Shown: piece by piece, positions 7,161 through 39,411 of the stretch
Layout: each line of letters opens with the position of its first letter
How positions within the stretch are numbered: position 1 is the stretch's first letter
Source of the DNA: a virus
DNA: 64,000 bases
Strand: one strand, 5' to 3'
Virus record (IMG/VR): IMGVR_UViG_3300026488_000013
Span: 1-64,000 of that record
Translations under genes and position numbers: made by a program
Notes under the pieces: generated by a model
The model's database searches: none
What the model was told of the DNA's origin: nothing
Seen by the model: only the letters and a program-made list of their open reading frames with translations

Positions 7161-7431
7161 TCCTCTGAGGCAGAGCCCGGCGTTTCGTCCCGCCGTTATT
7201 GCCCATGACGGGACTACGGCTTAACGCCTAGTCTCTGAACCTTCCCCATAGGAGCTTTTAAAACTCCCTTAGGGGCTTGGCTGCGGGTTGTCCCCTTGAC
7301 TCCCCAACTTTTTACCATACCGGCAGCCATTACGCTACCGCCAGACAGGTATTTCCACCTGTCCTTGGTATCGGGAAGTTTTTGAGGAGTTTCCCGCAGT
7401 TAGCCGGGTTTAACGACGGCGACCAAAGGTT

Positions 7432-9348
7432 ACCGTCGCACTGTTTTTTAACATAACCGTATGCATCTACATATGTTCCGGTAATTAAAGTTGTAATATC
7501 CCATCCAATATTTTTATTTGCTGGTTCAACATTTATTATTTTTTTATAACCGTCCCTATGTAAAACTTTTTTACCTATTATTTCTTCGGACGGTTTCAAC
7601 AATTGTTTATTTTCGTCAATCAAATATTCCTTAGTAGTGGATGATATGAACTCAGTCCCATCTTCCATAATTATTTTTACCGTATTAATATTAGAATGCT
7701 CGTGCCAGAAAACAACTTTATCATAAACAAATTCATTCTTTTCCCTGTCGTATGCTAATATTTCTACTGGTTCTAATAATTCAAGAATTCTTACATGAAC
7801 TCCGTCCACTCTAGTATAGTTTTCTATTTCTCTGTGATTTACATATTTAGGTAAATCTTTAATATGGCATTTAATAAATCTATCATTATTAACTTTAACT
7901 TCTATTAAATCCCAATTGCAGTCTGCGCCGAGTGTTCCAAAGATTATTTGTGGTAATGATGCAACATACACATCTTCCTTATCGATAACTGGTTTCATTC
8001 CTATTGTTGAGTTATCATTTTCAACAGGGTGCCTTAATACTAAGACATATTTTTCATATCCATCGTATACACCATCTATGATTTCTTGCTCTAATTCAAT
8101 TAATTTTTCTTTTATTTGTTGTGGTACAGTCTTAGGATTTTTAACAATGTTATTTGTTAATTCTCTAAATGCACGGTCGGAAAATTTATCGCCTATTTGT
8201 GATTTAACCCATGTATAGATGTCAGAATATTTAGGATTTTTTGTTATATGATGAACAACGAATGGTTCATATAATTTAATTAAAAACATCCAAGGAACTT
8301 TTACTTCATTTGGTTTTAAATTTTTATCATGGGTCAAAACAAGTCTAACTGTATGGTCTAATCGTTTGGACAATTTAGCACTTCTTAATAGTTTTCCCTT
8401 TTGTCCAAAACCCAATATTCCTACTAATTCCAATGCTAATTTTTGCAACACTGGATGTATTTTTGAATAATAACTTTTTATCGGGTCTTCAGATATATCA
8501 GTCTTATTATCAGTAGCGGCACCAGAATCTGGTTCCTCATCTGATAAAAGGTTATTTAAATTCGATAAAACATTTTGAATATCTTCTGAATTGTTGTCAG
8601 ATTTATTATTTGTATTAATATCATTACCGGATTTGATAGTATGCTCTGGTTTGTTTTTATAATATAACTCCCTAATATTTTTATATTTATTTGAAATCCG
8701 TATAATTTCTTGGTATAACTGCGATATAGGGTTTTCTCTTAAAACTTTACCATCTTTAATAAATACATCTCTAAATGCGGCGGGCATTACCAAAAGTTTG
8801 TCTGTGAACAATGTATCTACTAATTCGATAAGAGTTTTTAAAATATCACCATTACCTTTGACAGTATTTACATAATTTTCCATTATCATAAATTCGTTAG
8901 TGTTTTTTTCATCCTTCAAGAAATGATAAAAATCCAGAGGGTATCTAAATTCCTTTATCGATTTTAGATTTTTCTCTTCATGAAACGGTTCTGTATAAAA
9001 TGAACCGTCTTCCATTAAATAAAACGGTTCCGATTGGAGAAATTTTTGATAAACAGATTTACCCAAAATAGAAGAAATTAATCCACCAGATACAAAATCA
9101 AATGTATATGGGTTTAAAACTGGTAAAGGTAGCTCAATATATGCAAATGTCTTTTTACGGCGGGATGAACCAATAGGTCCAAATATCTGCTCAGAATACA
9201 CTCCCTCGGGGTCTAATATTTTTTTACCACCTACTTTAATAACTGTTTTATCGGAGGTTATTTTTTTTAACTTATAACGTTTAATAAATTCGTTGTAATT
9301 TATGGGTTTTAGGTAAATTTGATTATTATTAATTTTTCCCTGTTCCAT
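7432..9348 (-). CDS. RNAP beta-prime (copy 1) exon 1, intein-containing
   Basis: DPEGVYSEQIFGP, LRSAKLSKRLDHTVRLV, LRHP, LGAD...CDG. The ORF track extension to 7330 is read-through into the intron. Confidence 0.9.
7441..7920 (-). mobile_element. 160-aa mini-intein, from Cys1 (CNWDL) to C-terminal Gln (GYVKKQ), +1 Cys
   Basis: Inserted between GAD and CDG; block F-like GWDITT..GTYVD..G; removal restores GADCDGD. Confidence 0.85.
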
Positions 9349-35211: not shown

Positions 35212-35325
35212 GTTATATAATTATCCGTATTTAGTTAAAAAAAATGCAGCTTATGAAGTTATTTTAATTCGCTTATTTTAATTAACTCTGGCTACAAGTT
35301 TTTTATCTCAATAAGAAAATTAAAA

Positions 35326-37341
35326 TTATTTAAAAAATTCTATCCACAGGGAAATTGTTATAACAATTGGTTTATTACTTTTGAAATACTCTAGTATTTC
35401 ATCTTTACTTATCTTGACAAATTTACCGTTAATATATAAATGCGGCGCCGCCTTTGCATCAAAAATAACATTAAAATTTGGGATTATGGGTTTTAAATTA
35501 TTCAACCTTCCGGATATTGCAAACTTAATATTCGGTTTAGAAATTATTTCTTTTAGTAATTCTTTAATCTTTCTAATACACTTTGTATATATGTTGTTAA
35601 CAATTAAATCTTTCCTAATTGTTTGTCTTACAATAGTTGCAGTATCATTTTCAATATTAACCCGAACTATATAAGACATTGCTAAATTTCCGCCTTTATC
35701 ATATCCATTTAATACATACAAATTTCTCCCCTTTTTAAAGAACGCACCGGTTAGATTATTAACTTCATGGAATTTAATCATATCCTCAGACGCTTCGTAT
35801 TCACCAATCTCAAAATACAATTCATCACATGAGATTATTTTGAATAATTCGGATAACAATTTCTGATTTTTAGTTTCTTTTAAAATATACCGTATAATCA
35901 AATTTTTCCATAATTCCTTTTTATGTTCATTTTTCCATTCAGCATCAAATATTTTAAATGTTCGCATTTTATTTTTTCTTTCGAATTTTAGTTTAACATC
36001 AGCTCTCTTTAACAATGTTTCTAAAACTTCAATTGTATTGGCGCCGTATTTATCCGCCCACAGTGTTGAGTGCCAAAATATACTATCATATTCTACTGCC
36101 AATTTTAATTCGGGAATGTATAAATCCCAGCTATAAGTTTTATTCCCAATAACAAATTTCTTTTCCGAGACGAATGTTAAATTAAATTGTTTTCCTATTA
36201 TTTCCTTAATAGTATCGGTTATTTCTGCAATTACTAAATTTTGTTCAACTGATTTTCCTTTAGAGATTTTTTTCATGCAAATTGGACAACCGAATAATTC
36301 CTCCGGCATGGCATTAAAAACTTTCCATTTATAAAAATTTTCCAAACTTAATGGTCTATATTTCGTATAAGTTATTCCATGGCGATTACATTTCATTTTA
36401 ACCGATTTACCATAATATCGTTTAATGTAATCTAAAATATTTTTTATATTTATAAATTTGTATCCATTTTTTAATGCATATTCATATAACAGCTTATCAA
36501 ATTTAATTAACTCATCCGCAGGAACATTATATTTATCTAACAGTTCAGAAACAATTTTCCTATGTTTTACAGAATTAACCAATTTGGGGTTGAGAACTTT
36601 GTTAGAGATTAACAATTTCTTTCTTAGTTCGATTATTTTATCGTAAGAATTTCTATTCTCTCTCATTTTGACAGATTTAATTTTTCTTATATGTTCAGAG
36701 TTATTTGGGTTATTTTCTCTAAAATATTTAGTGGTTTGTTCGATATATTTTTTATAATAATCTGGGAAAAATATTTTAACGGGATAATTTTTAATTTTCT
36801 TATAACAGCCGCCGCAGGAATAATCGAGTATATACCTGTTAAATCTAGAAATATTTCTTCCGCATATTTTACATCTATATTTTTCCTTATTTTCTATCCT
36901 ATCAATAAAAGTATCCGTAAGCATCAAATATATCAAATGTCTAACGGTGAATTTCTTGCCAGAAATAAAATTTTTTCTTATTTTTGTCAGCACTTCTCTA
37001 TTAATATTAAATTGTTTTAATATCTTTTCCAATTCGTCAATATCTAAAGCACTTAATGAATTTTTATTCGCCTCGTAATTTGAAATTTCTGGATTGATTT
37101 CTCTTTCAATAAATGAATAGTATTTTTTAAATAAAAATTTTGGCGTAATAATAAAAGCACCGCAGGTTTCACATAGAATTTTTTCTTTATTTATGAATGT
37201 ATTTCTATCAATTTTTAATTCAGCACCACAATCCCAACAACTAATTTTATAAGACATAGGGAATTTCAATTCTTTAGGATGAAGTATCTCTAACTCATCC
37301 ATTTTATTTAACTCTTTCGTCAGCTTTCTCTCTTCCACCAT
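35326..37341 (-). CDS. Free-standing homing endonuclease (Hef/Vsr-like)
   Basis: Multiple CxxC, CNRHG, and WDLYIPELKLAVEYDSIFWH; related to 1061-3133; promoter motif 37350-37359. Confidence 0.7.
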   Translation of the reverse strand: MVEERKLTKELNKMDELEILHPKELKFPMSYKISCWDCGAELKIDRNTFINKEKILCETCGAFIITPKFLFKKYYSFIEREINPEISNYEANKNSLSALDIDELEKILKQFNINREVLTKIRKNFISGKKFTVRHLIYLMLTDTFIDRIENKEKYRCKICGRNISRFNRYILDYSCGGCYKKIKNYPVKIFFPDYYKKYIEQTTKYFRENNPNNSEHIRKIKSVKMRENRNSYDKIIELRKKLLISNKVLNPKLVNSVKHRKIVSELLDKYNVPADELIKFDKLLYEYALKNGYKFINIKNILDYIKRYYGKSVKMKCNRHGITYTKYRPLSLENFYKWKVFNAMPEELFGCPICMKKISKGKSVEQNLVIAEITDTIKEIIGKQFNLTFVSEKKFVIGNKTYSWDLYIPELKLAVEYDSIFWHSTLWADKYGANTIEVLETLLKRADVKLKFERKNKMRTFKIFDAEWKNEHKKELWKNLIIRYILKETKNQKLLSELFKIISCDELYFEIGEYEASEDMIKFHEVNNLTGAFFKKGRNLYVLNGYDKGGNLAMSYIVRVNIENDTATIVRQTIRKDLIVNNIYTKCIRKIKELLKEIISKPNIKFAISGRLNNLKPIIPNFNVIFDAKAAPHLYINGKFVKISKDEILEYFKSNKPIVITISLWIEFFK

Positions 37342-37365
37342 ATTTAAAAATTATCCATAAAGGTA

Positions 37366-37387
37366 GCATTCAATGCAGACTTTGATG
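37366..37387 (+). promoter_or_regulatory. Inverted mimic of an RNAP catalytic-site coding sequence (candidate endonuclease operator)
   Basis: GCATTCAATGCAGACTTTGATG translates as A-F-N-A-D-F-D-(G); intergenic, 6 nt from the endonuclease promoter. Confidence 0.55.
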
Positions 37388-37464
37388 TAAATGTCAAATA
37401 AAAACTTGACAAAAAATAAATAGATAAGCGGAAATACAGATAGAACAAGGACTTTAGGAATGGT

Positions 37465-39411
37465 TTAATGCGGATTTAGATGTAATATGATGGAACTCAT
37501 ATCCGCAAATTCAATAATGACACGGGCTTGCGAAACGCTATCACCATCATAATCAGCGTTAAAACTTTCAACTATCAATGGGTGTATTTTTAAAGTATAA
37601 TCTTCTTTATTAGTATTTATTTTTGCATCGTAAACTATCATCGATGGCTCCCATAGAGTTGGTTGCCTATTTATAAAGGAATATAGTTTTATTCTTCCTT
37701 TATTAACATTATACGCAAACAAATCGAACAGAAATTCTATATCTTCCAATATTTGTTCATCCGTTATATCCAGCTCTTTGGGGCTTTTTGCACCATATTC
37801 TAATTCCTGATATATCAGTTTTATTAAATATGTAAAATATTTACCATTATCTTTTAATTTGATTTTATTTAATTTCTTAATCATCGATTTCGGTGCGACA
37901 GGTTTCTGAACTATTACATCACATGGAGTAAACTTTTTATATTTAAATAGTGTATATAATCTTCTAAGAAATATCAAAAATTCCATTTTGAATATTTGTC
38001 TGGCTGTATAATATGAAACCAATATTTCATATGGTTTAACCTCTAATGTTGGAGTAATTACATTTCTGGCGGAAAAATCTATAGTTTTTCCTATTAGAAA
38101 CTGTCTCACCAAACCTTCCTTTTTACCTAATTCGGAATCTAATAATTTTGAGACATATTTTATATACCATTGTTGAAGTAAATTAACTTGTCGTTCCTGC
38201 GTAAATATTTCTGGTATGGTTAGATTTTCTAAGTTTTTATCCAGATATTCTTTATTTTCTTGACAATATTCAAATAATGTATAGACGCCGCCGTGGTGTG
38301 CGTATCTGTAATAATACTCTGAATATTGATTATAAGTTATAAACGGTTTATAAATAAACCTATCAAATTGGCTAGAAATTTGTTCGGTATTTGTTTCATG
38401 ATTTTTTTTACCATCTGAAGTGGGAATGTTTATAGATACAGATAACTTATGAGGATTATCTGTTAATTTCTCAAATTTCTCATTCATTATCACTATTTGT
38501 GTTAATATTCTATCATAATCACTTCTATATAATTCGTCCCCCACTATCATAAATTTTCTAAGCTCCGCAGTTATCACCGGAATAATTATAGTTATCGAAT
38601 TTATCAAGTGTGTAGGGTATTTAAATTTTAGAATATATTCGTTAAAAATTTCTTCGTTAGACAATATCGCATATATCAATGTATATAAACCGAACGCAGG
38701 TTTTGATAAAACATAGGTGTCCTTATAATATTCCCAAGTATATTTTTCATTATCTTTAATTAGGTCATATTGTAATGCAAATTCGTAAAATTTATTGAAA
38801 AAATCCTTATAACTGGTTTCTGCTATTAATTCTTCATACTTTTCCTTTATTTTATTATTTCCGCTTATTAGATAAAACTTTATTCCTTCGGGCGGCTCAA
38901 ATCTTTTCTTTTTTCTATTAAACAGCAAAAATTGATAATCTAAAATTATTTTATTCATTAATGACATAAATGTTTGTTTTCCGCCTTTTAATATTCGGTA
39001 TATCTCGCTGAGTATCAACGGATTAAATACAGGATAATTTAAATTTATAAATCCGTGATTTCTGGAGATATTTTGTTTATAATCCATTACTACGCCGCAA
39101 ACTTTGCATTTCTTTCCATATCCCCTTGTTAAACCACACAAACAAGTTTTGGAAGTAGTTCCGAATATAGACCACGAATGCAATCCTTTAGGGTTAGGTA
39201 TATTTTTACCAAATCTCTTTTCAATATTTTCTACTATTTTATCTTTGAGTGTAGGGTCTTTTATTTTCTCAAAAAACTCCAATTCATTAACATCTTCTAT
39301 TAATATCTTCGAAGATTTTATTATCTTGCTCGATTCATATTTCTTATATGGGTTAGAAAACAATGAATATAGGAGCTCTAACTTTTCCAACTTAGTTTCA
39401 AATTCCATCAT
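37465..39411 (-). CDS. RNAP beta-prime (copy 2) N-terminal part, ending in an intein-like tail
   Basis: GLHSWSIFG, CLCG..CKVC zinc domain, GKTIDFSARNVI, NRQPTL and FNADYDGD, then 24 aa and a stop; promoter motif 39420-39429. Confidence 0.92.
   Translation of the reverse strand: MMEFETKLEKLELLYSLFSNPYKKYESSKIIKSSKILIEDVNELEFFEKIKDPTLKDKIVENIEKRFGKNIPNPKGLHSWSIFGTTSKTCLCGLTRGYGKKCKVCGVVMDYKQNISRNHGFINLNYPVFNPLILSEIYRILKGGKQTFMSLMNKIILDYQFLLFNRKKKRFEPPEGIKFYLISGNNKIKEKYEELIAETSYKDFFNKFYEFALQYDLIKDNEKYTWEYYKDTYVLSKPAFGLYTLIYAILSNEEIFNEYILKFKYPTHLINSITIIIPVITAELRKFMIVGDELYRSDYDRILTQIVIMNEKFEKLTDNPHKLSVSINIPTSDGKKNHETNTEQISSQFDRFIYKPFITYNQYSEYYYRYAHHGGVYTLFEYCQENKEYLDKNLENLTIPEIFTQERQVNLLQQWYIKYVSKLLDSELGKKEGLVRQFLIGKTIDFSARNVITPTLEVKPYEILVSYYTARQIFKMEFLIFLRRLYTLFKYKKFTPCDVIVQKPVAPKSMIKKLNKIKLKDNGKYFTYLIKLIYQELEYGAKSPKELDITDEQILEDIEFLFDLFAYNVNKGRIKLYSFINRQPTLWEPSMIVYDAKINTNKEDYTLKIHPLIVESFNADYDGDSVSQARVIIEFADMSSIILHLNPH

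Follow-up and report, generated by a model that had tools for sequence, protein, structure and literature searches.

The closest described counterpart of the locus presented here is the operator of I-TevI, the homing endonuclease of the td intron of phage T4 (Edgell et al.). This operator shares 15 of 20 positions with the homing site and overlaps the promoter; it is bound as tightly as the homing site itself and is cut about 100-fold less, the cleavage determinant being missing (PMC2988022). In common with I-TevI, the locus described below carries a homing-site-like sequence at the promoter of the nuclease itself. I-TevI is an intron-encoded GIY-YIG enzyme, whereas the nuclease considered here is a predicted free-standing Vsr/Hef-like enzyme belonging to a split intein. 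Furthermore, the target-like sequence occurs in two copies, 95 bp apart and both inverted relative to the real site. It adjoins the promoter motif instead of lying over it, one of the copies doubles as coding sequence, and binding and repression are predicted.

The second related system is the fractured gene described by Dassa, London, Stoddard, Schueler-Furman and Pietrokovski (2009; PMC2677866). In both cases the gene of an essential enzyme is broken within an intein in a phage setting, and a free-standing Vsr-like endonuclease, which brings its own control elements, follows the N-terminal half. The gene affected here is that of the beta' subunit of a multisubunit RNA polymerase (RNAP), broken at the catalytic Asp triad, and is absent from the list in that paper. 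In addition, the C-terminal half is found 78 kb away and not in the adjacent position, the N-terminal intein fragment (IntN) is very short with 24 residues, and the control element is a target mimic instead of a hairpin hiding the ribosome binding site (PMC2677866). Within the model of Dassa et al. the present layout corresponds to the later "uncoupled" step, but the endonuclease has been retained.

With respect to the nuclease itself, I-Bth0305I is the prototype of the EDxHD enzymes (Taylor et al., 2011) and likewise has a Vsr-like catalytic domain (E, D, H, D and FWH) within a multidomain protein. Its target lies in codons for residues critical to function, to which the target proposed here can be likened, and the specificity of homing endonucleases tracks the coding degeneracy of their targets (PMC3239194). 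The enzyme of our locus, known from its sequence, is much larger (671 aa), carries zinc ribbons, is free-standing and not intron-encoded, and matches I-Bth0305I at the level of the fold only. The best annotated relatives of its nuclease domain are Hef of the T4-related phage U5 and Hef-like enzymes, with 25-33% identity over 20-30% of the protein. Hef-type enzymes are free-standing as well and cut close to their own genes (reviewed in PMC2988022). Their genes lie between intact genes (nrdA/nrdB and others) and not in an intein. To our knowledge, target mimics have never been described for Hef-type genes.

Split intein in the beta' gene of RNA polymerase copy 2

The analysed stretch of 64,000 nucleotides, here called the window, is part of a phage record of 167,050 bases with a G+C content of 28%. 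As a record of this size is only about 60% complete, the virus is a jumbo phage. It carries two RNAP sets, and the gene at 37465-39411 (minus strand) belongs to copy 2. It encodes the N-terminal part of beta' (beta' N, 648 aa), with matches to Pfam RNA_pol_Rpb1_2 (PF00623, 1.3e-12) and PF04997 and with relatives P0004-P0006. The phage's own catalytic-loop codons, TTT AAC GCT GAT TAT GAT GGT GAT for FNADYDGD, are located at 37540-37563 on the minus strand. The original prediction had described this motif as containing Tyr and differing in its codons from the 22-base element treated below, which agrees with our reading. This sequence, termed copy A in the following, represents the end of the N-extein and the left half of the intein insertion site. 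It is followed by the 24 residues of the N-fragment, counted from Ser1, and a stop codon (37465-37539, minus strand), as indicated by comparison with relatives and by complex prediction.

In distant relatives the beta' ORF continues for about 600 residues beyond NADFDGD, DGD being followed directly by T(M/V)A(L/I)Y. Beta' N of the window and of five closer relatives (L076, L080, L081, L078, and L079) ends 24-33 residues past DGD, and the residue following DGD is always Ser. The C-terminal part of beta' copy 2 was found at G000 113643-116135 (minus strand; locus L119:1144-3636), 78 kb from beta' N and directly after a helicase-like gene, with an intein C-fragment (IntC) fused in frame. About 170 residues of IntC match the Pfam intein splicing domain PF14890 at positions 17-153 of 155 (E 3.9e-6, which is below the curated cut-off), and it is just positions 1-16 of the model that are missing. 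IntC contains block B (SGDHSL) as well as blocks F and G, which end in NFTFVANDIVVQD followed by T. Its terminal residue is Asp (Gln-Asp) rather than Asn, and Thr occupies position +1. After the final VVQD of IntC the sequence proceeds with TMAQYAI, which is the exact point where the unsplit homologues (DGD followed by TMA.Y) resume.

Prediction of a complex between the beta' N tail and IntC resulted in a score of 0.78, compared with 0.00 for the best control, with residues 625-636 and 640-647 at the modelled interface. The runs shared at least 65% of their contacts and the pLDDT of the partner was at least 53. The mark of 0.78 is attained by 51 of 78 solved complexes and by 2 of 108 mismatched pairs; passing it signifies likeness and not proof, split inteins being common among solved structures. 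Block A alone is present on the N-fragment, together with Ser1, and blocks B, F and G with Thr+1 are present on the C-fragment, which is the distribution of an atypical split with a short N-fragment. Most likely, the active site of the polymerase is completed by trans-splicing of such an atypically split intein, which has Ser1 on an N-fragment of 24 residues, Thr+1, and Asp at its C-terminal end. If so, the catalytic Asp loop of a phage multisubunit RNAP can be assembled by trans-splicing of the products of genes 78 kb apart, by means of a cysteine-free intein. A full-text literature search for intein together with NADFDGD gave no result. Inteins with such a short N-fragment are useful for protein ligation.

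With a split-intein N-fragment at the end of beta' N and an adjacent 671-aa ORF for a predicted free-standing homing endonuclease of the Vsr/Hef-like type, the locus conforms to the fractured genes described by Dassa et al. (2009; PMC2677866), apart from the relocated C-terminal half. A conserved gene is divided in two and has the halves of a split intein at its broken ends. The endonuclease is not placed between both halves at one locus, the C-half being 78 kb off.

A predicted Vsr-like homing endonuclease

The 671-aa ORF (35326-37341, minus strand) is separated from the beta' N gene by 123 bp, the distance that had been claimed beforehand. The protein matches PHROG 559 and 3339 (homing endonuclease), and the syntenic protein of L079 matches PHROG 3339 at 2.4e-31. 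In tblastn searches, genes annotated as "Hef-like homing endonuclease" from Campylobacter and T4-like phages were obtained. Around residues 390-470 there is a nuclease domain of the Vsr-like (EDxHD/Hef-like) type, in addition to an N-terminal zinc ribbon and further Cys pairs. In a full-length alignment of four syntenic homologues, Cys pairs are invariant, as are E417, D419, H424, and D466 around AVEYDSIFWHS (FWH motif), and six relatives have an intact nuclease in which the catalytic residues are conserved. For an AF2 model of residues 310-510 (mean pLDDT 67.5) the best folds were PvuRts1I/AbaSI (probability 0.97-0.98), I-Bth0305I (3R3P; TM 0.65, E 0.39) and Vsr (TM 0.55), the E-values of these fold matches being weak (0.02-0.9). 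Among solved structures, 3R3P included, no sequence-level match to the 671-aa protein was detected, and no further copy of the nuclease is present in the record. Based on the PHROG and tblastn matches, the catalytic residues and the fold model, the protein is predicted to be a free-standing Vsr-like (EDxHD/Hef-like) homing endonuclease, and the original assignment of the neighboring ORF to this type of enzyme is thereby backed.

A helix-turn-helix resembling sigma region 4 was considered for the nuclease and rejected: phmmer gave hints at E 0.1-0.6 alone, and the N-terminal model matched zinc ribbons alone.

Endonucleases of the same family (21-22% identical) follow directly after a short intein N-fragment in L078:3054-4892, L079:5333-7081, and L081:1063-1644. 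The beta' N of these phages is just 38-41% identical to that of the window, and the genes downstream of the nuclease differ. The occurrence of the same nuclease after IntN in such diverged phages indicates that beta' N and the nuclease have long formed a stable pair, an unusual trait for a selfish gene. The locus offers a testable case of a selfish nuclease that is kept after its homing route was broken.

Target-like sequences at the gene junction

The motif TAYGGATAAT-N8-ATG occurs at 10 exact sites in the window (474, 14922, 15970, 17437, 31743, 32110, 32977, 35209, 37339, and 39409), compared with 0.04 expected, and each of them lies directly before an ORF start. In front of the endonuclease gene it reads TATGGATAAT (37350-37359, minus strand), 8 nt before the ATG. 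TAYGGATAAT is probably the promoter of the phage; the short distance of 8 nt to the start codon makes leaderless mRNAs probable. The promoter call on which the original prediction relied is therefore sound. At the same place, TACGGATAGT is found in L076 and TATAGATATT in L080.

Upstream of this promoter, the plus strand carries the 22-mer GCATTCAATGCAGACTTTGATG at 37366-37387, which encodes AFNADFD and then V. The 22-mer reads exactly as had been claimed, including its distance of 6 nt from TATGGATAAT and its position beside TGTCAA-N8-TTGACA (37392-37411); its distance to the downstream start codon of the endonuclease gene is 25-49 nt. Allowing up to three mismatches, it is unique in the window and in the whole record of 167,050 bases, and 0.00 matches were expected from shuffles. 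The degenerate pattern TTYAAYGCNGAYTNNGAYG has exactly three matches in the record, all within 200 bp: the own motif of the phage (copy A, minus strand), the 22-base element (copy C, 37369-37390, plus strand) and a further sequence at 37464-37485 (copy B, plus strand). The shuffles and the confinement of the pattern to this junction rule out a chance origin of the 22-mer. An antisense ORF at this position was likewise discarded, the frame being shut by stop codons on both sides and having no start codon. A general regulatory motif of the phage was rejected as well, as TCYGCATTRAA, TTGACATTTA and related words are found solely at this junction when the whole record is searched.

Copy C agrees with the degenerate codon consensus in 18 of 19 specified positions and copy B, TTTAATGCGGATTTAGATGTAA, in 17 of 19, the latter reading FNADLDV in antisense. 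Both are direct repeats of each other (18/22) and are inverted with respect to copy A. On the gene strand, copy B constitutes the last six codons (LHLNPH) and the stop codon of the beta' N/IntN ORF. In both copies the resemblance to the putative target ceases after GATG, which is followed by TAA, and no copy of the right half-site is present anywhere in the 167-kb record. We read copies B and C as imitations of the left half of the predicted intein-less homing site without its right half. The original prediction had treated the 22-mer as a single element; copy C stands, and the second copy and the split intein had been overlooked.

Together with the TTGACA box, copy C forms a conserved spacer block (37366-37397, minus strand), which reads TTGACATTTACATCAAAGTCTGCATTGAATGC on the gene strand and is a candidate operator or homing half-site mimic. 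The right arm (gene strand) of the dyad at 37392-37411 lies within this block; L076 and L080 also have the left box, but in another orientation or form. Neither a sigma-70 promoter based on the TTGACA box nor a terminator is present, and no Rfam family matches the window or its relatives.

The same layout, with a gap of 123-124 bp, was found in L076, a hydrothermal-vent contig with a nuclease 51% identical to that of the window, and in L080 (53% over 190 residues), and both of them retain both copies at the same distances. In all three pairwise alignments the best-conserved 30-column window of the spacer is copy C with the adjoining TTGACATTTA; the relatives that proved informative numbered three. 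Between the window and L076, 26 of 30 positions are identical in this block and 53 of 97 elsewhere, and the spacer is otherwise nearly saturated. Copy C of L076 reads TTTAATGCAGATTTTGGTGTAA. Copy B of L076 is identical in 21 of 21 positions, with identical codons in 6/6 cases compared with 21/38 in the preceding codons for the same residues. In L080, copy B reads FNADYDG in antisense and matches the consensus in 19/19 positions, the sense strand reading HHNLH, and copy C is decayed (13/19). Among the more distant relatives, L078 shows 15/19 and 14/19 at the equivalent places, L081 shows 14/19, and nothing is left in L079. The anticipated decoys before homologous nucleases are hence present in L076 and L080, reduced to weak traces in L078 and L081, and absent from L079. 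An excess of antisense third-position changes was not significant by parsimony (4/7, P=0.17; 7/15, P=0.20), and a post-hoc count, according to which 5-6 of 7 changes retain a natural variant of the motif, is suggestive only. DNA scans of viral and metagenome collections with the conserved block gave no further relatives; word-based protein searches gave one nuclease homolog and no more, and blastn against GenBank phages gave none.

Two further features were observed. The sequence GCATTCAATGC at 37366-37376 (codons A-F-N-A) is a perfect 11-bp palindrome, which occurs in this phage alone and is not kept in L076 or L080; I-Bth0305I reportedly prefers a pseudopalindromic core. The gene-strand core shared by copies B and C, CTGCATT, is also seen just past the endonuclease gene at 35243-35249 (minus strand), 13 nt upstream of the next promoter, TACGGATAAT (35220-35229), the corresponding spacing in copy C being 12 nt. 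This heptamer could be the decayed remnant of a third copy at the opposite end of the cassette or could be due to chance, and after the endonuclease gene of L076 no equivalent was found.

Proposed operator function and alternative explanations

The natural target of the nuclease, as judged from the position of the intein, should be the intein-less beta' allele of related phages, in which the NADFDGD codons would be joined to the TMA.Y codons. Since the intein is inserted immediately behind the imitated codons, these should form the left half of the expected target. We propose, with a probability of roughly 0.45, that copies B and C are operators of the I-TevI type, which are bound but left uncut by the nuclease. 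The enzyme would bind the half-sites via its DNA-binding modules and would be unable to cut them. Binding at copy C, 6 bp upstream of its own promoter, would lower the transcription of the nuclease gene and result in autorepression as in the case of I-TevI. Copy B, located 95 bp upstream where the beta' N ORF ends, could represent a second operator or a roadblock to read-through. As with I-TevI, a sequence resembling the putative homing site lies next to the endonuclease promoter, the homing site being deduced from the intein position. Consistent with an operator, copy B stays target-like while the encoded peptide changes (HHNLH in L080 with a perfect antisense FNADYDG), and other mobile elements hit the same codons (L082 and beta' copy 1, see below), which makes the target plausible. 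Against an operator, copy B encodes part of the intein at the modelled interface, so that constraint on the protein could explain some of the conservation, and the invariant core of the block, TTGACATTTA, is not target-like. The decay of the mimics in lineages with an intact nuclease implies that any function is dispensable. In the fractured PolB gene of phage MIJ3 (PMC6892783) no target mimic was found (best match 15/18, null range 13-15), and its nuclease ORF lacks a separate spacer; hence the device is not universal. Immunity of the phage's own gene does not require its Tyr residue or its codon differences, since the site is already interrupted by the intein. Among the three alternatives of the original prediction, an operator resembling the homing site fits best, with a conserved block and one half of the target copied. 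Should the nuclease bind the mimics, sequence alone would disclose what an uncharacterised Vsr-like homing endonuclease targets, and self-repression in the style of I-TevI would extend to free-standing nucleases in fractured genes.

The main rival, considered less likely, is that both copies are scars of recombination left by the entry of the endonuclease cassette into the intein and are not bound by the nuclease: short fragments of the cleaved target, with the cut (GATG) at their end, would have been captured or copied in inverted orientation at the upstream end of the cassette and then duplicated. Copy B would persist as the tail and stop codon of the intein N-fragment, and copy C only because of its proximity to the promoter. 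Copy B does lie exactly at the fracture point, where intein-derived sequence ends, and the two copies share their break point to the base, as a single cut would produce. The acquisition of short coding tails from the cassette is known for fractured genes (PMC2677866). The copies decay (copy C of L080; L078, L081, and L079) though the nuclease persists, and the wobble-position signal is not significant. However, a scar does not account for the retention of 26/30 positions around copy C amid a nearly saturated spacer, as the top window in 3/3 comparisons, nor for the shift of copy B in L080 towards the target consensus despite non-conservative changes of the peptide, and the flanks of copy A are not duplicated, so that a simple fold-back fails to explain the layout. 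Being antisense to the NADFD codons, copies B and C could alternatively act as RNA, pairing either in cis with the own motif, with effects on stability or translation of the mRNA, or with host or competing-phage beta' mRNAs in trans. The count of 16 of 19 pairable positions with the phage's own mRNA, on which a cis role had been based, is correct on recount; 15-17 of 21 positions are pairable with the own motif, the minimum-energy fold of a 271-nt RNA pairs copy A with copy B, and regulatory hairpins are common before endonuclease ORFs of fractured genes (PMC2677866). Yet cognate pairs (14-17/21) are no better than non-cognate ones (15-18/21), compensatory changes are missing, and the centroid fold lacks the helix between A and B. 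The folding z-scores of the spacer are -1.5, +0.3, and +0.5, and that of the 271-nt region is -0.66. If mRNAs start at the promoter motif, copy C lies upstream of the endonuclease transcript, and no match to an Rfam family was obtained. With neither covariation nor significant folding energies for cis pairing, and no evidence found for a guide or antisense RNA, a role at the RNA level appears highly improbable.

That rpoC of the host is the target of the nuclease, which would then serve as a weapon for host shutoff, is hardly credible, even though such a strategy would be open to a phage that brings two RNAP sets of its own. AFNADFDG is encoded with these exact codons in about 69 bacterial rpoC genes, but the species concerned are spread over many phyla, the matches extend into the flanks by 0-1 base, and any gene coding for NADFDG gives such matches, so that no particular host is indicated and this part of the original prediction is not supported. 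Moreover, homing between phage alleles is classically recognised by a nuclease that resides, as here, within an intein at the homologous position of a phage gene (PMC2677866). The recent transfer of a longer rpoC fragment was excluded on the same grounds, none of the 70 bacterial and 1 viral exact matches exceeding 0-1 flanking base. The viral match is an unrelated contig (L005:6576-8558, minus strand), in which a beta'-like gene with the eukaryote/archaeon-style motif NADFDGDEMN contains the exact 22-mer without similarity in the flanks. A further reading, distinctly unlikely, is that the mimics give a read-out of the recognition code of a Vsr-like endonuclease specialised on the DNA for the catalytic loop of RNAPs, a universally conserved element, with the GATG end marking the cut. 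Because the intein halves are 78 kb apart, the enzyme would no longer drive ordinary homing and would be kept as a weapon against uninterrupted beta' genes of co-infecting jumbo phages. The mimics would then be under codon-like constraint and would never be translated.

Further insertions were noticed at or near the catalytic loop. In L082:6001-6630, a beta' N fragment (50% identical) is interrupted after FNADF (GACTT) by a highly folded, G+C-rich sequence (-63 kcal/mol, z -4.6), the start of which pairs with the exon end in a P1-like manner. The insert resembles a group I intron placed within the Phe codon; as it is cut off by the end of the contig after 130 nt, no Rfam family matches. The upstream genes in L082 are of bacterial type (TetR, TonB-dependent receptor), and the contig may be chimeric. 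In beta' copy 1 of the window (7330-9348, minus strand, especially 7432-7920), TLGAD is followed by CNWDLIEV, and 160 residues ending in YVKKQ precede CDG, after which a G+C-rich structured sequence begins at 7431. These residues, which gave no intein match in Pfam, may represent a mini-intein after GAD, and the structured sequence may be a group I intron after CDG (TGC GAC GGT). The exon end CGACGGU is pairable with GCCGUCG just inside the insert, again P1-like and including a U-G wobble.
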